From NCBI RefSeq assembly GCF_002854065.1, contig NZ_CP024147.1: a stretch of 64,000 nucleotides of DNA, one strand, 5' to 3'. The notes under the pieces were generated by a model, which was given only the letters and a program-made list of their open reading frames with translations, was not told where the DNA came from and searched no databases. This DNA is from Escherichia coli (lineage in GTDB: Bacteria > Pseudomonadota > Gammaproteobacteria > Enterobacterales > Enterobacteriaceae). The position numbers were made by a program, and so were the translations under genes. This document shows, piece by piece, positions 32,712-57,250 of the stretch (position 1 is its first letter; each line of letters opens with the position of its first letter).

Positions 32712-33338
32712 ATGAAAAAGATTTGGCTGGCGCTGGCTGGTTTAGTTTTAGCGTTTAGCGCATCGGCGGCGCAGTATGAAGATGGTAAACAGTACACTAC
32801 CCTGGAAAAACCGGTAGCTGGCGCGCCGCAAGTGCTGGAGTTTTTCTCTTTCTTCTGCCCGCACTGCTATCAGTTTGAAGAAGTTCTGCATATTTCTGAT
32901 AATGTGAAGAAAAAACTGCCGGAAGGCGTGAAGATGACTAAATACCACGTCAACTTCATGGGTGGTGACCTGGGCAAAGATCTGACTCAGGCATGGGCTG
33001 TGGCGATGGCGCTGGGCGTGGAAGACAAAGTGACTGTTCCGCTGTTTGAAGGCGTACAGAAAACCCAGACCATTCGTTCTGCTTCTGATATCCGCGATGT
33101 ATTTATCAACGCAGGTATTAAAGGTGAAGAGTACGACGCGGCGTGGAACAGCTTCGTGGTGAAATCTCTGGTCGCTCAGCAGGAAAAAGCTGCAGCTGAC
33201 GTGCAATTGCGTGGTGTTCCGGCGATGTTTGTTAACGGTAAATATCAGCTGAATCCGCAGGGTATGGATACCAGCAATATGGATGTTTTTGTTCAGCAGT
33301 ATGCTGATACAGTGAAATATCTGTCCGAGAAAAAATAA
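32712..33338 (+). CDS. dsbA: Periplasmic thiol:disulfide oxidoreductase DsbA
   Basis: 208-aa ORF with signal peptide and CPHC active site ([13 protein letters not shown]). Confidence 0.95.
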
Positions 33339-33356
33339 TTCAATGTAAATTACATA

Positions 33357-33386
33357 AAGCCCGTGAATATTCACGGGCTTTTTTTA
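33357..33386 (+). terminator. dsbA rho-independent terminator
   Basis: Hairpin aaagcccgtgaatattcacgggcttt followed by T-run. Confidence 0.65.
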
Positions 33387-33451
33387 TTATTTAATAGGTG
33401 ATGCTGCCAACTTACTGATTTAGTGTATGATGGTGTTTTTGAGGTGCTCCA

Positions 33452-33727
33452 GTGGCTTCTGTTTCTATCAGCTGTCCCTCCTGTTCAGCTACTGACGGGG
33501 TGGTGCGTAACGGCAAAAGCACTGCCGGACATCAGCGCTATCTCTGCTCTCACTGCCGTAAAACATGGCAACTGCAGTTCACTTACACCGCTTCTCAACC
33601 CGGTACGCACCAGAAAATCATTGATATGGCCATGAATGGCGTTGGATGCCGGGCAACCGCCCGCATTATGGGCGTTGGCCTCAACACGATTTTCCGCCAT
33701 TTAAAAAACTCAGGCCGCAGTCGGTAA
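33452..33727 (+). CDS. insA: IS1 InsA
   Basis: 91-aa [43 protein letters not shown]. Confidence 0.9.
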
Positions 33728-34149
33728 CCTCGCGCATACAGCCGGGCAGTGACGTCATCGTCTGCGCGGAAATGGACGAACAGTGGGGATACGTCGGGGC
33801 TAAATCGCGCCAGCGCTGGCTGTTTTACGCGTATGACAGGCTCCGGAAGACGGTTGTTGCGCACGTATTCGGTGAACGCACTATGGCGACGCTGGGGCGT
33901 CTTATGAGCCTGCTGTCACCCTTTGACGTGGTGATATGGATGACGGATGGCTGGCCGCTGTATGAATCCCGCCTGAAGGGAAAGCTGCACGTAATCAGCA
34001 AGCGATATACGCAGCGAATTGAGCGGCATAACCTGAATCTGAGGCAGCACCTGGCACGGCTGGGACGGAAGTCGCTGTCGTTCTCAAAATCGGTGGAGCT
34101 GCATGACAAAGTCATCGGGCATTATCTGAACATAAAACACTATCAATAA
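33646..34149 (+). CDS. insB: IS1 InsB reading frame (transposase made as InsAB' by -1 frameshift)
   Basis: 167-aa ORF overlapping the insA 3' end; ttaaaaaactc slippery motif in the overlap. Confidence 0.85.
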
Positions 34150-34164
34150 GTTGGAGTCATTACC

Positions 34165-34665
34165 GAGTTTTTCTCTTTCTTCTGCCCACACTGCTATCAG
34201 TTTGAAGAAGTTCTGCATATTTCTGATAATGTGAAGAAAAAACTGCCGGAAGGCGTGAAGATGACTAAATACCACGTCAACTTCATGGGTGGTGACCTGG
34301 GCAAAGATCTGACTCAGGCATGGGCTGTGGCGATGGCGCTGGGCGTGGAAGACAAAGTGACTGTTCCGCTGTTTGAAGGCGTACAGAAAACCCAGACCAT
34401 TCGTTCTGCTTCTGATATCCGCGATGTATTTATCAACGCAGGTATTAAAGGTGAAGAGTACGACGCGGCGTGGAACAGCTTCGTGGTGAAATCTCTGGTC
34501 GCTCAGCAGGAAAAAGCTGCAGCTGACGTGCAATTGCGTGGTGTTCCGGCGATGTTTGTTAACGGTAAATATCAGCTGAATCCGCAGGGTATGGATACCA
34601 GCAATATGGATGTTTTTGTTCAGCAGTATGCTGATACAGTGAAATATCTGTCCGAGAAAAAATAA
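34165..34665 (+). pseudogene. Duplicated dsbA 3' fragment (from codon E43, no start codon or signal peptide)
   Basis: 34165..34723 repeats dsbA 32838..33396; translation identical to DsbA residues 43 onward; one synonymous change ccg to cca in the CPHC proline codon. Confidence 0.8.
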
Positions 34666-34675
34666 TTCAATGTAA

Positions 34676-34705
34676 ATTACATAAAGCCCGTGAATATTCA
34701 CGGGC
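34676..34705 (+). terminator. Second copy of the dsbA terminator
   Basis: Same hairpin as 33357..33386, within the 559-bp repeat. Confidence 0.6.
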
Positions 34706-34819
34706 TTTTTTTATTATTTAATAAATATAAATACATTCTGATAATGCATCCTGCCGCTGGACATTATTTCAGCATAAGTGGATATTCAAAGTTTTGCTGT
34801 TTTATCAGGGAATATTTAT

Positions 34820-46919: not shown

Positions 46920-47092
46920 AAAGCAGTCTCCTGAACAGGTTGCACCATTTTAGTGCATTATAGCTTTTTACGGATAAAAAGCGCGAAGCATCAGAGAATT
47001 GACGGAGAAAAAAGCCCATGCAGAGATGGGCTGAAAGTTTCCACGGCAACTAAATCCCGGCGTTGTTGCGCCGGGTAGTACAACTTCAACTA

Positions 47093-48502
47093 TTAGACGC
47101 TGTAGTACAGCTCAAACTCTACCGGATGCGGAGTCATACGCACGCGGTCATCTTCTTCGCGACGCAGAGCGATGTACGCATCGATCGCTTCATCCGTGAA
47201 CACGCCACCGGCTTTCAGGAACTCGCGGTCCAGATCCAGCTCGTTCAGTGCTTCTTCCAGAGAGCCTGCAACTTGTGGGATCTCTTTCGCTTCTTCTGGC
47301 GGCAGGTCATACAGGTTTTTGTCCATGGCTTCGCCCGGATGGATCTTGTTCTTGATGCCATCAAGACCGGCCATCAGCAGGGCAGCAAAGCACAGGTACG
47401 GGTTAGCCGCCGGGTCCGGGAAACGCACTTCGATACGACGCGCTTTCGGAGAAGAAACCACCGGAATACGGATAGACGCAGAACGGTTGCGTGCAGAGTA
47501 AGCCAGCATTACCGGTGCTTCGTAGCCCGGGACCAGACGCTTATAAGAGTTGGTGGTCGGGTTTGCCAGGGCGTTAATCGCTTTAGCGTGTTTGATTACG
47601 CCGCCAATGTAGTACAGCGCCTGCTCAGACAGACCTGCGTATTTGTCGCCTGCGAACAGGTTAACGCCGTTTTTAGACAGAGACATGTGGCAGTGCATAC
47701 CGGAGCCGTTATCACCGAACATCGGTTTTGGCATAAAGGTCGCGGTTTTACCGAAGCGGTGCGCTACGTTGTGCACAACATATTTGTAGATCTGAATTTC
47801 GTCAGCTTTTTTGGTCATGGTATTGAAGCGGGTAGCCACTTCGTTCTGACCAGCAGTCGCTACTTCGTGGTGATGGGCTTCAACCACCAGACCCATCTGT
47901 TCCATCACCAGACACATTTCAGAACGAATATCCTGAGCAGAGTCTACCGGCGGAACCGGGAAGTAACCGCCTTTCACTGCCGGACGGTGACCTTTGTTAC
48001 CACCTTCATATTGGGTGGAGGAGTTCCATGCGCCTTCGATATCGTCGATAGCAACATGAGAACCGGAGATAGATGATCCGAAACGGATGTCATCGAACAG
48101 GAAGAATTCAGGTTCTGGCCCGAACAGTACGGTGTCGGCAATGCCAGTAGAACGCAGGTAATCTTCAGCGCGCTTCGCGATGGAGCGCGGGTCACGGTCA
48201 TAGCCTTGCAGGGTGCCAGGTTCAAGGATGTCGCAACGGATAATCAGGGTGGAGTCGGCGAAGAACGGGTCAATCACTGCGGTGGATGCGTCTGGCATCA
48301 GCACCATGTCGGATTCGTTAATGCCTTTCCAGCCGCCAATCGAGGAGCCGTCAAACATTTTGCCTTCTTCGAAGAATTCAGCATTCACCTGATGAGCAGG
48401 GATAGTGACGTGCTGTTCTTTACCTTTGGTATCGGTGAAGCGCAAATCAACAAACTTCACTTCGTGCTCGTTCAGCATCGTCAGTACGTGTTCAGCGGAC
48501 AT
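47093..48502 (-). CDS. glnA: Glutamine synthetase
   Basis: 469-aa [31 protein letters not shown]. Confidence 0.97.
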
Positions 48503-48585
48503 ACTTTAACTCTCCTGGATTGGTCATTGTCGTCGTGGTAACGAAATCTGCAATTATTTTGGCCGTGTCGCCGTAAAAAAGATAA

Positions 48586-48602
48586 AGCGAAAACTGTGCC
48601 AA
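48586..48602 (-). promoter_or_regulatory. glnAp2 sigma54 promoter (-24 GG / -12 GC)
   Basis: Minus strand reads ttggcacagttttcgct; located just upstream of glnA. Confidence 0.7.
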
Positions 48603-48654
48603 CTTTTAAATTGCCCCTAAAAGGCGTTATCATGCTTAACATCGTGCAAAAGGG

Positions 48655-48726
48655 CTGCACCATGATGTGAATGTTGCACCAATATAGTGCTTCAATGGAA
48701 ACATTAAGCACCATATTGGTGCAATG
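48655..48726. promoter_or_regulatory. NtrC enhancer sites upstream of glnA
   Basis: Repeated tgcacc(a)...tggtgca dyads. Confidence 0.6.
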
Positions 48727-48874
48727 ACCTTTGGATAACCCTTTTTATGCTCCGTGAAAGCGATCACAAAGGGACTCTGCAATACTTGTTTGCGGAGGAT
48801 GTTTGTGATCCTGTTTTGTAGTGCGATTAATCCGTGTACAATAACGCGCTATTTCTAATGCCTGAGGCAAAGTT

Positions 48875-50698
48875 GTGATCGAAAAATTGCGTAATATCGC
48901 CATCATCGCGCACGTAGACCATGGTAAAACCACCCTGGTAGACAAGCTGCTCCAACAATCCGGTACGTTCGACTCTCGTGCCGAAACCCAAGAGCGCGTG
49001 ATGGACTCCAACGATTTGGAGAAAGAGCGTGGGATTACCATCCTCGCGAAAAACACCGCTATCAAATGGAATGATTACCGTATCAACATCGTTGATACCC
49101 CGGGGCACGCCGACTTCGGTGGTGAAGTTGAACGTGTAATGTCCATGGTAGACTCAGTGCTGCTGGTGGTTGACGCATTTGACGGCCCGATGCCGCAAAC
49201 GCGCTTCGTAACCAAAAAAGCGTTTGCTTACGGCCTGAAGCCGATTGTTGTTATCAACAAAGTTGACCGCCCTGGCGCGCGTCCTGATTGGGTTGTGGAT
49301 CAGGTATTCGATCTGTTCGTTAACCTCGACGCGACCGACGAGCAGCTGGACTTCCCGATCGTTTACGCTTCTGCGCTGAACGGTATCGCGGGTCTGGACC
49401 ACGAAGATATGGCGGAAGACATGACCCCGCTGTATCAGGCGATTGTTGACCACGTTCCTGCGCCGGACGTTGACCTTGACGGTCCGTTCCAGATGCAGAT
49501 TTCTCAGCTCGATTACAACAGCTATGTTGGCGTTATCGGCATTGGCCGCATCAAGCGCGGTAAAGTGAAGCCGAACCAGCAGGTTACTATCATCGATAGC
49601 GAAGGCAAAACCCGCAACGCGAAAGTCGGTAAAGTGCTGGGCCACCTCGGTCTGGAACGTATCGAAACCGATCTGGCGGAAGCTGGCGATATCGTAGCGA
49701 TCACGGGCCTGGGCGAACTGAATATTTCTGATACCGTTTGCGACACGCAAAATGTGGAAGCGCTGCCGGCACTCTCCGTTGATGAGCCGACCGTTTCTAT
49801 GTTCTTCTGCGTTAACACCTCGCCGTTCTGCGGTAAAGAAGGTAAGTTCGTAACGTCTCGTCAGATCCTGGATCGTCTGAACAAAGAACTGGTACACAAC
49901 GTTGCGCTGCGCGTAGAAGAAACCGAAGACGCCGATGCGTTCCGCGTTTCTGGTCGTGGCGAACTGCACCTGTCTGTTCTTATCGAAAACATGCGTCGTG
50001 AAGGTTTTGAACTGGCGGTATCCCGTCCGAAAGTAATCTTCCGTGAAATCGACGGTCGTAAACAAGAGCCTTACGAAAACGTGACGCTGGACGTTGAAGA
50101 ACAGCATCAGGGTTCTGTAATGCAGGCGCTGGGCGAACGTAAAGGCGACCTGAAAAACATGAATCCAGACGGTAAAGGCCGCGTACGTCTCGACTACGTG
50201 ATCCCAAGCCGTGGTCTGATTGGCTTCCGTTCTGAGTTCATGACCATGACTTCCGGTACTGGTCTGCTGTACTCCACCTTCAGCCACTACGACGACGTAC
50301 GTCCGGGTGAAGTGGGTCAGCGTCAGAACGGTGTACTGATCTCTAACGGTCAGGGTAAAGCGGTAGCGTTCGCGCTGTTCGGTCTGCAGGATCGCGGTAA
50401 GCTGTTCCTCGGTCACGGTGCAGAAGTTTACGAAGGTCAGATTATCGGTATTCATAGCCGCTCTAACGACCTGACTGTAAACTGCCTGACCGGTAAGAAA
50501 CTGACCAACATGCGTGCTTCCGGTACTGACGAAGCCGTTGTTCTGGTTCCGCCTATCCGCATGACTCTGGAACAAGCTCTGGAGTTCATCGATGATGACG
50601 AACTGGTAGAAGTGACTCCGACCTCTATCCGTATTCGTAAACGTCACCTGACGGAAAACGATCGTCGTCGCGCCAACCGCGCACCGAAAGACGATTAA
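48875..50698 (+). CDS. typA: Ribosome-associated translational GTPase BipA/TypA
   Basis: 607-aa ORF with GTG start; G1 motif AHVDHGKTT. Confidence 0.95.
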
Positions 50699-50715
50699 TT
50701 TCGTTTTTTAGTCAT

Positions 50716-50748
50716 AAAAAACCTGCCAGCGATGGCAGGTTTTTTTTT
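50716..50748 (+). terminator. typA rho-independent terminator
   Basis: Hairpin aaaaacctgccagcgatggcaggt followed by tttttttt. Confidence 0.7.
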
Positions 50749-50914
50749 GCCTGTCGTGAGCGCACACCAATGCGAGTATCTCCCTTATAAGTCTGTGGTT
50801 ACGTCAATAGAGAGCTTTGTCACAATTATCTGCAAAGTCATACGCCGTTAATTGCTTTCTTTTTTGGCGTAAGCGTAAGATGCTTCATCTGGTTTAAACC
50901 AAAAGGATTAAACA

Positions 50915-51550
50915 ATGGCGGAGAATCAATCCACCGTAGAAAATGCAAAAGAGAAACTGGATCGGTGGTTGAAAGATGGCATCACCACGCCGGGTGGAAA
51001 ACTCCCTTCAGAAAGAGAGCTGGGAGAACTGCTGGGCATTAAACGTATGACGCTGCGCCAGGCGTTGTTGAACCTCGAGGCAGAATCCAAAATCTTCCGT
51101 AAGGATCGTAAGGGGTGGTTCGTGACCCAGCCGCGATTTAATTACAGTCCGGAGCTGTCGGCGAGCTTTCAGCGGGCCGCAATTGAGCAAGGGCGAGAGC
51201 CTTCCTGGGGGTTTACCGAGAAAAACCGTACCAGCGATATTCCCGAGACGCTCGCGCCACTGATTGCAGTGACGCCATCAACTGAACTCTATCGCATCAC
51301 CGGCTGGGGGGCGCTGGAAGGACATAAAGTTTTCTATCACGAAACATATATTAATCCTGAAGTTGCTCCGGGCTTTATTGAACAACTTGAAAACCACTCA
51401 TTTTCTGCAGTCTGGGAAAAGTGCTACCAAAAAGAGACGGTAGTAAAAAAATTGATTTTCAAACCCGTCAGAATGCCGGGCGATATCAGCAAGTATCTTG
51501 GCGGTTCTGCGGGTATGCCAGCGATATTAATTGAAAAGCATCGCGCCGAC
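50915..51550 (+). pseudogene. yihL: yihL (GntR-family regulator) truncated at codon 212 by IS1
   Basis: ORF 50915..51577 runs into the IS1 left end and stops after 7 IS1-encoded codons (GDAANLLI); HTH N-terminus intact. Confidence 0.75.
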
Positions 51551-51605
51551 GGTGATGCTGCCAACTTACTGATTTAGTGTATGATGGTGTCTTTGAGGTG
51601 CTCCA

Positions 51606-51881
51606 GTGGCTTCTGTTTCTATCAGCTGTCCCTCCTGTTCAGCTACTGACGGGGTGGTGCGTAACGGCAAAAGCACTGCCGGACATCAGCGCTATCTCTG
51701 CTCTCACTGCCGTAAAACATGGCAACTGCAGTTCACTTACACCGCTTCTCAACCCGGTACGCACCAGAAAATCATTGATATGGCCATGAATGGCGTTGGA
51801 TGCCGGGCAACCGCCCGCATTATGGGCGTTGGCCTCAACACGATTTTCCGCCATTTAAAAAACTCAGGCCGCAGTCGGTAA
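51606..51881 (+). CDS. insA: IS1 InsA
   Basis: Protein identical to copy 1 InsA. Confidence 0.9.
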
Positions 51882-52303
51882 CCTCGCGCATACAGCCGGG
51901 CAGTGACGTCATCGTCTGCGCGGAAATGGACGAACAGTGGGGATACGTCGGGGCTAAATCGCGCCAGCGCTGGCTGTTTTACGCGTATGACAGGCTCCGG
52001 AAGACGGTTGTTGCGCACGTATTCGGTGAACGCACTATGGCGACGCTGGGGCGTCTTATGAGCCTGCTGTCACCCTTTGACGTGGTGATATGGATGACGG
52101 ATGGCTGGCCGCTGTATGAATCCCGCCTGAAGGGAAAGCTGCACGTAATCAGCAAGCGATATACGCAGCGAATTGAGCGGCATAACCTGAATCTGAGGCA
52201 GCACCTGGCACGGCTGGGACGGAAGTCGCTGTCGTTCTCAAAATCGGTGGAGCTGCATGACAAAGTCATCGGGCATTATCTGAACATAAAACACTATCAA
52301 TAA
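51800..52303 (+). CDS. insB: IS1 InsB reading frame
   Basis: Protein identical to copy 1 InsB. Confidence 0.85.
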
Positions 52304-52318
52304 GTTGGAGTCATTACC

Positions 52319-53306
52319 GCCGGGGTATTGGGGCATCCTCTTTGTCTGGGCGCTATTTGGCGTTACTTGCGACATGATGAACTGGCCGGTCTTACTCAAG
52401 TCGGTAAGTCGATTGGGCAATAGCGAACAACAAGGTCGGTTGTTTGGCTTCTTCGAAACAGGGCGTGGCATTGTCGATACCGTGGTGGCATTTTCTGCGT
52501 TGGCAGTATTTACCTGGTTTGGCAGTGGCTTATTGGGTTTTAAAGCAGGCATCTGGTTCTATTCCCTTATTGTGATTGCCGTAGGCATTATTATTTTCTT
52601 TGTCCTGAATGACAAAGAAGAGGCACCGTCCGTTGAGGTGAAAAAAGAAGACGGAGCATCGCAAAACACCAGTATGACCTCGGTGCTGAAAGACAAAACT
52701 ATCTGGCTTATCGCTTTCAACGTCTTCTTCGTTTACGCGGTTTACTGTGGCCTGACATTCTTCATTCCATTCCTGAAAAACATCTATCTATTGCCCGTTG
52801 CGCTGGTGGGGGCTTACGGCATCATTAACCAATACTGTCTGAAAATGATTGGTGGACCGATTGGTGGCATGATTTCAGATAAGATCCTGAAATCGCCGAG
52901 TAAATATCTATGCTACACCTTTATCATCAGTACCGCTGCGCTCGTACTGTTGATTATGCTGCCGCACGAAAGTATGCCGGTCTATTTAGGGATGGCATGT
53001 ACGCTGGGCTTTGGCGCGATAGTCTTTACACAGCGAGCCGTATTTTTTGCACCTATCGGCGAAGCAAAAATTGCTGAAAATAAAACAGGCGCGGTGATGG
53101 CGTTGGGTAGCTTTATTGGTTACGCCCCGGCGATGTTCTGCTTTAGTCTGTATGGCTACATTCTGGATTTAAATCCGGGGATTATTGGCTACAAAATCGT
53201 GTTTGGCATTATGGCCTGCTTCGCATTCTGTGGTGCGGTGGTTTCCGTAATGCTGGTTAAGCGTATTAGCCAACGTAAGAAAGAGATGCTGGCGGCTGAA
53301 GCTTAA
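52319..53306 (+). pseudogene. yihN: MFS-type transporter gene 3' portion (yihN-like), 5' end replaced by IS1
   Basis: ORF 52305..53306 starts inside IS1; multi-TM C-terminal region; no start codon or promoter of its own. Confidence 0.65.
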
Positions 53307-53310
53307 TTAA

Positions 53311-53367
53311 TGGCCGGATGTGCTTAATCCGGCCAAAAAAAATCCGCTGAATCCCCAGCGGATTTTT
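53311..53367. terminator. Bidirectional terminator (two hairpins with A-run and T-run)
   Basis: ggccggatgtgcttaatccggcc aaaaaaaa tccgctgaatccccagcggat ttttt. Confidence 0.55.
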
Positions 53368-53427
53368 CGAAGTTTCAATTTCAGGATACTTCTTGCTCGG
53401 CAACTACCAGTTCAACATTCTCTTCAC

Positions 53428-53766
53428 TTAACAACTGGCAGAAAGAATTGGGAGGCGGGGCATCAGTAAAAAAAGCCCTGACATTCCGTGCATTGCCAAC
53501 GCTACCGCGCCGTGAAAAACATCGCCTGCTCCAGTCGTATCAACCACATTGACAGAAAATGCATCCTGTTGACACAAATGATCATCTTTAATCCACAATG
53601 AATCTTCAGAACCCAGCGTGACATACACTTTACCCGCAGTTTGTGTCGTTGCCTGGTACAAACCTTCTTCAGGTGACTGCAGGCCAGTCATGCGTTTCCG
53701 CCCTGGCGTTGAGAACACGGCGTGATCAGTAAGCGCGACAAGTGGATAAATATCCTGCGGTGTCAT
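53428..53766 (-). pseudogene. PfkB-family sugar kinase gene fragment (yihV-like)
   Basis: 112-aa ORF with ribokinase-family motif VVDTTGAGDVFHGA; lacks N-terminal half; C-terminus after a T7 run looks frameshifted. Confidence 0.55.
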
Positions 53767-53955
53767 ATCGTCGCTGGTTATCGAAACTCGTTGGCAATTT
53801 ACACCTGAATCTTAACCATTCATCTATTGCGAAAAAGCCAGTGAAATTACTCTGCTTTTTCGCAATCAGCATCACAAGATTACCCTTATTGCCACATAGC
53901 CAAACCCATCCTTTCCCGCTACAGTTAATTTCTTGTGGCGCGAAAGGAGGCAAAA

Positions 53956-56841: not shown

Positions 56842-57250
56842 CTGATGGAGAGGGGCGGTGCTGCCTCTCTCATTCAGGTCATTTATATTAGTCCTTGGCT
56901 ATTTCGGTTATATTGAATAAGAACTCTATAAATTTTTATTCTTCGTTGGCTCCATACGTGTCTTGCTACATCACTGTTCAGGAGCATTTAAATATTATTT
57001 GTAGAGCTGTATGGCAATTATCGCAGATAATGCTTAATTCATCATCTTAGTTCATGTTTGAGCGATTTTTGATAGTCAAAACCCCCTCTGGTGCCATACT
57101 TTTCTCATAAATATTTTTAAAATCTATAGCTAACAAATATTATGCAAAGATAATGGGCTGGCATCATTGTCAGTATCATTCATTTACTGCTCTGGATGTT
57201 ATAAATAATTATGTTGTATGTTTGCTCTTAACTGTGGAAAGGAGGCTGTA

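Follow-up and report, generated by a model that had tools for sequence, protein, structure and literature searches.

Introduction

Adjacent deletion mediated by IS1, through intramolecular replicative transposition, was first described in the 1970s in the gal region of Escherichia coli. The products of such classical events carry one IS1 copy at the junction between collinear flanks, the DNA that adjoined the element is deleted, and the 9-bp duplication is missing from one flank or from both. Comparable structures have been followed as they arose in the laboratory: in a long-term evolution experiment, 14 of the 14 deletions linked to IS150 movement were devoid of target duplications, and they can be explained as an insertion followed by an adjacent deletion (PMC11708052). 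For IS5 and IS481, laboratory evolution has also led to the proposal of one-step IS-centred rearrangements (PMC11708052).

Here we report on a locus of this kind in a natural E. coli lineage. The DNA analysed is a stretch of 64,000 nt from an E. coli chromosome (contig NZ_CP024147.1), hereafter the window, in which a single IS1 separates what is left of yihL from what is left of yihN. YihL is among the E. coli regulators without a known function (PMC9308461). In K-12, the yihL deletion has been used as a neutral linked marker, with values for yihL::kan trkH+ poxB::lacZ that match those of the wild type (PMC4759930). We found no structural difference between the window and the classical IS1 adjacent deletions, as it too combines one IS1 at the junction, collinear flanks and deleted adjoining DNA. 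The long-term-experiment deletions (PMC11708052) likewise have an IS at the deletion junction and no target duplication, but they concern IS150, of the IS3 family, in time-resolved laboratory populations, whereas the window comes from a natural lineage, sampled without a time series, and its element is IS1. We interpret the structure as a lineage-specific IS1-associated deletion which pseudogenised or removed yihL, yihM, and yihN, and to which we assign a probability of about 0.9.

Results

The window is collinear with the K-12 MG1655 chromosome from pldB to past fabY (blastn). In the interval between typA and yihX, a GntR-type open reading frame (ORF), an IS1 element, and a major facilitator superfamily (MFS)-type ORF follow each other on the same strand (Table 1). 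The IS1 copy is complete. Its imperfect terminal inverted repeats of approximately 23 bp are those of the IS1 family, its insA frame is intact, and an A6C motif within TTTAAAAAACTC provides for the -1 frameshift between insA and insB' which is typical of IS1. It shares 99.87% identity with copies that PGAP labels IS1B, and the equivalent element in the complete genome CUWW06 is annotated as an IS1B family transposase with programmed frameshift. The only sigma-70-like site on the plus strand of the region lies at the left end of the element, where we presume it to be the insA promoter of IS1. Elsewhere in the window, a further IS1, which likewise lacks a 9-bp duplication, separates the copies of a 559-bp dsbA duplication.

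Table 1. Features of the typA-yihX interval in the window and segments of the K-12 locus that the window lacks
Feature	Position in window	Strand	Length	Evidence or remarks
yihL'-IS1 fusion ORF (GntR-type)	50915-51577	+	220 aa	yihL codons 1-212 at 50915-51550; TAG at 51575-51577
IS1, complete, IS1B-like	51551-52318	+	768 bp	Inverted arms, frameshift motif, PGAP label
IS1 left terminal inverted repeat	51551-51573			Computed inverted arm 51546-51573
Sigma-70-like site CTGCCA-16-TATGAT	51558-51585	+		IS1 left end, facing insA; promoter scan (consensus match)
insA	51606-51881		91 aa	Intact
insB' frame	51800-52303
A6C frameshift motif	starts at 51854			Within TTTAAAAAACTC
IS1 right terminal inverted repeat	52296-52318			Computed inverted arm 52296-52323
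MFS-type ORF (mechanical)	52305-53306	+		Begins at TTG, 14 nt within the IS1 right end
yihN remnant	52319-53306	+		yihN nt 279-1266, residues 94-421 of 421; blastn and residue comparison
DeoR regulator remnant	about 53381-53503	-		PGAP pseudogene in CUWW06, converted via the L001/window alignment
PfkB sugar kinase remnant	about 53491-53769	-		PGAP pseudogene in CUWW06, converted via the L001/window alignment
Deleted: yihL 3' part			75 nt
Deleted: yihL-yihM spacer			7 nt
Deleted: yihM, entire			981 nt
Deleted: yihM-yihN spacer			101 nt
Deleted: yihN 5' part			278 nt

On either side of IS1, the window aligns with two separate stretches of MG1655 in the same orientation (blastn): window 47081-51550 corresponds to K-12 4056613-4061082, and window 52319-53342 to K-12 4062525-4063548. 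The 1,442 bp in between (K-12 4061083-4062524) are absent, so that the left end of IS1 abuts nucleotide 636 of yihL and its right end nucleotide 279 of yihN. The element is preceded by CGCGCCGAC and followed by GCCGGGGTA, and these flanks do not form a 9-bp target-site duplication. Thus, a simple insertion, with an 8-9 bp duplication and contiguous flanks, does not describe this copy. A single IS1 at the junction, collinear flanks in the same orientation, a segment gone, and no duplication are instead the footprint expected of a classical IS-associated deletion. The initial annotation, made on the window alone, had proposed an IS1-linked loss of the yihL 3' end, yihM, and the yihN 5' end, and had recommended alignment to a reference yihL-yihM-yihN locus to delimit it. 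Comparison with K-12 and with close relatives (blastn) bears this out: the absence of yihM is explained by its position inside the missing interval, and the alignment fixes the size of that interval at the 1,442 bp given above.

The same structure recurs in other assemblies. It is present, with 99.9-100% identity, in two complete RefSeq genomes, CUWW06 and 100416, both of which have the two flanking genes annotated as pseudogenes, and the same junctions are found in a 4.7-Mb near-complete assembly contig (UGBN01000001) and in dozens of drafts, which confirms that the IS1 junction structure is real and not an assembly accident. The assembly collection contains the exact 220-aa product of the yihL'-IS1 ORF in 85 blocks, and GenBank has it on 48 contigs. 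The right-hand yihN remnant was detected in 61 blocks of the collection, and in each case the PfkB remnant and yihX come next. A look-up with the window's own 310-aa YihN remnant returned no match, because this copy carries a private A352V change; the sister version did match. When the K-12 sequence of the remnant was used instead, the matches comprised yihN genes with frameshifts, further IS insertions, and a contig (L038) with an inverted, divergent IS1 at another position of yihN, and the junction of the window was not among them.

Downstream of yihN, the window carries approximately 550 bp of DeoR and PfkB remnants instead of the sulfoquinovose operon of K-12. Comparison with the intact version in NZ_CM151386.1 (blastn) identifies them as the residue of an alternative sugar-catabolism cluster replacing K-12 ompL-csqR, which has been reduced in this lineage by two deletions, one of 841 bp and one of 7,269 bp, neither with an IS. 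These losses show decay across the entire locus in this lineage and, together with the private A352V change of the window's yihN remnant, they fit relaxed selection. The DeoR/PfkB remnant between yihN and yihX marks the lineage: 38 complete E. coli genomes out of 5,426 share it with the window. As yihN is annotated as complete in 36 of these 38, and as the two inspected closely (33F4 and 2018-05-2CC) keep all three genes at full length (yihL, 711 nt; yihM, 981 nt; yihN, 1,266 nt), the deletion is a derived state and not the natural state of the lineage. Compared with 33F4 and 2018-05-2CC, the window lacks the very interval that it lacks compared with K-12.

These relatives also bear on a reading without any deletion, in which a short yihL and a short yihN, with no yihM, were ancestral and IS1 merely landed between them. 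The initial annotation had named this situation as the one that would invalidate its proposal. We found no support for such a reading, to which we give next to no credence: it is refuted by the full-length genes of the relatives, and the complete yihN of most remnant-sharing genomes contradicts an ancestral short state. Moreover, the sequences flanking IS1 break off in mid-codon and mid-domain, and the element lacks the 9-bp duplication that would accompany a plain insertion between two short genes.

A deletion formed in two steps might have left relatives with IS1 at one breakpoint only. At yihL, a simple insertion would be recognised by a junction consisting of the IS1 right end followed by CGCGCCGAC and CAGCAAGGCAAT; at yihN, by GACAATGCCGGGGTA followed by the IS1 left end, yihM being present. 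Using 120-bp and 60-bp junction queries, we detected no simple-insertion precursor in the same background among the 5,426 complete E. coli genomes. The only matches were the two genomes with the full structure and strain ET734 (NZ_CP100922.1).

In ET734, a simple insertion of IS1X2, bordered by the 9-bp duplication GCCGGGGTA, occupies the same nucleotide of yihN as in the window. It shares with the window the right-junction nucleotide, the orientation of IS1, and the yihN remnant. It differs from it by the 9-bp duplication, by an IS1 copy that is 6% divergent (93.75% identity with the window IS1), by intact yihL and yihM, and by a K-12-type locus downstream (ompL-yihO). Judged from these sequences, the ET734 insertion is an independent event at the same target in another lineage.

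Similarly, the left junction between yihL and IS1, together with an identical 220-aa product, is shared by two or more further sequence backgrounds. One is represented by a K-12-like contig (WSHQ01000045), which is identical to K-12 over 3,636 bp upstream and shows 35 differences from the window within these 3,636 bp; the other, a third background, by two contigs (BAAFMM010000062 and ZHUJ18-1 scaffold_1995) with 46-55 differences from the window, 5-7 of them inside yihL. Among the contigs of other backgrounds, L013 and L014 end within IS1, and the IS1 of L009 is cut by IS26 at nucleotide 433. The simplest reading is that the yihL and yihN breakpoints would both be preferred IS1 targets. In the K-12-like contig, however, the flank may have recombined, because its yihL differs from that of the window at one position only.

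Other IS1 events at the locus fall on both sides of this distinction between insertion and deletion. The simple insertions of ET734, PEC422, LR882052, and CM151386 all have 9-bp duplications. Conversely, IS1 lies at deletion junctions without duplications in Z1323PEC0011, where the deletion runs from just downstream of yihL into yihP, and in LD27-1, where it runs from within yihM to upstream of yihR. Both resemble the window in IS1 orientation, in the missing target duplication, and in the loss of neighbouring yih genes; they differ from it by their breakpoints and by much larger deletions, which extend rightwards into the sulfoquinovose operon. We considered the shared orientation of IS1 as possible evidence and rejected it, as our search joins only pieces located on the same strand and the resemblance is thus an ascertainment artefact.

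What remains of yihL is fused to IS1 in frame. The element starts on a codon boundary of yihL and contributes GGT GAT GCT GCC AAC TTA CTG ATT TAG, so that eight IS1-encoded residues (GDAANLLI) replace the last 24 residues of YihL; residue comparison shows identity with K-12 YihL up to residue 212 and divergence beyond. The initial annotation was right that the yihL ORF runs into IS1 at 51551, but its count of seven IS1 codons is one short. The winged helix of the fusion product, hereafter YihL', is complete (Pfam GntR PF00392, residues 8-70, full profile, E = 1e-19). The UTRA domain (PF07702) is not: it spans residues 91-214 and covers positions 1-124 of the 141-position profile, versus 1-140 in K-12 YihL. 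The PDB homologues of YihL are YvoA/NagR and DasR. These are HutC-type repressors, a family whose members bind their effector and dimerise through the C-terminal domain. The earlier view that YihL' retains its helix-turn-helix thus stands; its corollary of continued DNA binding has no more than partial backing, given where UTRA stops. Transcription of yihL' probably proceeds from its own promoter region, which is untouched, and binding of YihL' to DNA is possible. Its stability and its capacity to form dimers are nevertheless doubtful in view of the UTRA truncation, and with the C-terminal UTRA strands gone the protein is most likely unstable or unresponsive to effector. PGAP annotates the CUWW06 equivalent of yihL' as a pseudogene with a missing C-terminus, while the GenBank entries of the exact 220-aa protein (AUJ94163.1 and others) read "GntR family transcriptional regulator".

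On the other side of IS1, the MFS-type ORF had been described as lacking its 5' part and starting inside IS1, without a promoter or start of its own, and each of these points agrees with our results, sequence derived from yihN beginning only where the element ends (Table 1). By visual inspection, the 93 codons lost at the 5' end encode the first two transmembrane helices and the greater part of the third, or about 2.5 in all, along with the DKLPRR loop motif. The remnant covers positions 83-343 of the Pfam MFS_1 profile, compared with 22-343 for K-12 YihN, and does not make up a complete MFS fold of about 12 helices. A consensus scan of positions 50650-53450 revealed no outward or hybrid promoter at the right end of IS1, and inspection of the sequence revealed no Shine-Dalgarno motif before the TTG at 52305 or the ATG at 52374. 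As there is neither an outward promoter-like site nor a ribosome-binding site, and as the N-terminal helices are gone, we infer that the YihN remnant is not expressed in a useful form. PGAP annotates its CUWW06 equivalent as a pseudogene with a missing N-terminus.

Discussion

The deletion could have formed in several ways that lead to an identical final sequence. In the route we favour, IS1 would have inserted at one of the two breakpoints; its transposase would then have driven intramolecular replicative transposition into the other breakpoint, and the intervening DNA would have been lost, leaving one IS1 without duplication. We prefer this adjacent-deletion route because it requires the fewest events and because all comparable cases in the long-term experiment were two-step (PMC11708052), and we put its odds at about even. 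A less probable, although still credible, course is that two IS1 copies inserted in the same orientation, at yihL nucleotide 636 and at yihN nucleotide 278, and that RecA-dependent recombination between them then removed the 1,442 bp along with one copy. Such a recombination would leave a single IS1 bordered by one half of each duplication, exactly as observed, and each breakpoint is separately known as an IS1 junction elsewhere (in ET734 for yihN, in other backgrounds for yihL). However, this course involves three events instead of two, and we detected no genome with two IS1 copies in the locus among the 5,426 complete ones.

A single event, in which a new IS1 appeared at the centre of the deletion without target duplication, would also account for a lone IS1 centred on the deletion and for the missing duplication, and the IS1 in the dsbA duplication of the window corresponds to the mirror-image structure described in the long-term-experiment study (PMC11708052). 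We nonetheless hold it to be quite improbable, as the 14 cases of that study all resolved to two steps (PMC11708052), and as the right junction of the window matches a normal IS1 target with 9-bp stagger in ET734, which fits ordinary cutting by the transposase. A broader proposition, that both breakpoints are nucleotide-precise IS1 hot spots and that the deletion, together with the dsbA-duplication IS1, represents natural one-step IS-centred rearrangements without target duplications, appears rather unlikely to us.

Whichever route was followed, the main reading is that the event destroyed the genes it touched. The opposite possibility is that the YihL-IS1 fusion is a selected, functional regulator, acting as an effector-blind repressor or in a dominant-negative manner, and is not a dead gene. 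Several observations might point that way: neither the winged helix nor the promoter region is damaged, sister assemblies of the window type do not differ in the 636-nt yihL part, the exact protein has persisted on the 48 GenBank contigs, and the same junction recurs in other backgrounds. An IS1 target hot spot would, however, account equally well for the recurrence of the junction, as would clonal descent for the persistence of the protein. Moreover, the UTRA domain of YihL' loses 17 of its 141 profile positions, yihM and yihN, located immediately downstream and presumed to be partners of YihL, were destroyed in the same event, and the deletion of yihL is neutral as a marker in K-12 (PMC4759930). 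We therefore consider a selected function of the fusion very improbable.

A lineage-specific, IS1-associated deletion of this type is an ordinary, already-annotated kind of IS-driven gene decay, since public annotations mark both flanking genes as pseudogenes. The lineage is to be recorded as being without functional yihL, yihM, and yihN, and the GenBank entries for a 220-aa "GntR family transcriptional regulator" represent IS1 fusion artefacts derived from a pseudogene and do not describe a natural variant. The loss allows no prediction of a phenotype, because yihL, yihM, and yihN are non-essential genes to which no function has been firmly assigned, and K-12 can dispense with yihL. Only one aspect of the locus is mildly interesting, namely that in unrelated strains IS1 has used both breakpoints again with nucleotide precision. 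IS1 has repeatedly struck the yih locus across E. coli, on two occasions at one and the same nucleotide, and the locus could offer a natural setting in which to study how IS1 chooses its targets and how deletions form at IS junctions.

IS1-family events at the yihL-yihM-yihN locus

Across public E. coli genomes, at least eight separate IS1-family events have affected the 3-kb yihL-yihM-yihN locus. They comprise four simple insertions, each flanked by a 9-bp duplication, two larger deletions whose junctions carry IS1, one divergent IS1 inserted in inverted orientation in yihN, and one event in ETEC1749, near the same yihN site. The yihL|IS1 junction of the window is also found in contig BAAFMM010000062.1 (GCA_054664195.1; L009, from 4069 onward), where an IS26 end cuts IS1 at nt 433 and the cut IS1 is followed by two identical 820-bp IS26-type copies; the presence of IS26 at this site is a further rearrangement in that genome.

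Two private single-base differences distinguish the window from the sister assembly UGBN01000001, whose deletion junctions are identical (table below).

Features of the dsbA region and single-base differences from UGBN01000001
Feature	Window position	Description
dsbA, complete	32712-33338	left of IS1 copy 1
IS1 copy 1	33397-34164	within 32838-34723
Second dsbA copy, 5'-truncated	34231-34665 (ORF)	right of IS1 copy 1
T>C	51591	IS1 position 41, just within the left end
C>T	53095	A352V in the YihN remnant

Differences from K-12 in the neighbouring regions

Downstream of yihN, window positions 53343-53888 lack the sulfoquinovose operon of K-12, which spans about 11.9 kb from ompL to csqR, and hold instead, on the minus strand, remnants of two genes of an alternative cluster, one for a DeoR regulator and one for a PfkB kinase. 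This cluster is intact in NZ_CM151386.1, where it encodes DeoR, a sugar kinase, a yihU-like reductase, an aldolase, a zinc alcohol dehydrogenase, two MFS transporters and an aldose epimerase. Relative to NZ_CM151386.1, segments of 841 bp and 7,269 bp of the cluster are missing from the window, with no IS at the junctions of either loss, and the resulting DeoR/PfkB remnant is common to 38 complete E. coli genomes, O145:H28 strains among them.

Another replacement is found in the glnA 3' region, where 48 bp of unrelated sequence (window 47033-47080) stand in place of 160 bp of K-12 (4056453-4056612). As the replaced segment lies within the annotated glnZ small RNA, the GlnZ region of the window differs from that of K-12.

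The dsbA duplication and IS1 mobility

A 559-bp segment, which corresponds to K-12 positions 4043544-4044102 and consists of a 3' portion of dsbA together with 58 bp of further sequence, is present as a direct repeat with one copy on each side of IS1 copy 1, and this IS1 has no 9-bp target duplication. The structure is an IS-centred tandem duplication and resembles the 'Dup-IS' structure described in a laboratory-evolution study of IS-centred rearrangements lacking target duplications (PMC11708052). As the close relative CUWW06, which shares the yihL-IS1-yihN deletion, is devoid of this tandem duplication, and as the exact truncated DsbA product, when looked up across assemblies, has no match in any other assembly, the duplication either arose recently and is confined to the source strain, or is an artefact of the assembly.

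IS1 content also differs between these close relatives: IS1 copy 1 at dsbA is present in the window and missing from CUWW06, while CUWW06 carries an extra IS1 between fabY and yiiF (L001 10253-11020, equivalent to about window position 56950) which is missing from the window. IS1 is therefore currently mobile in the lineage of the window.
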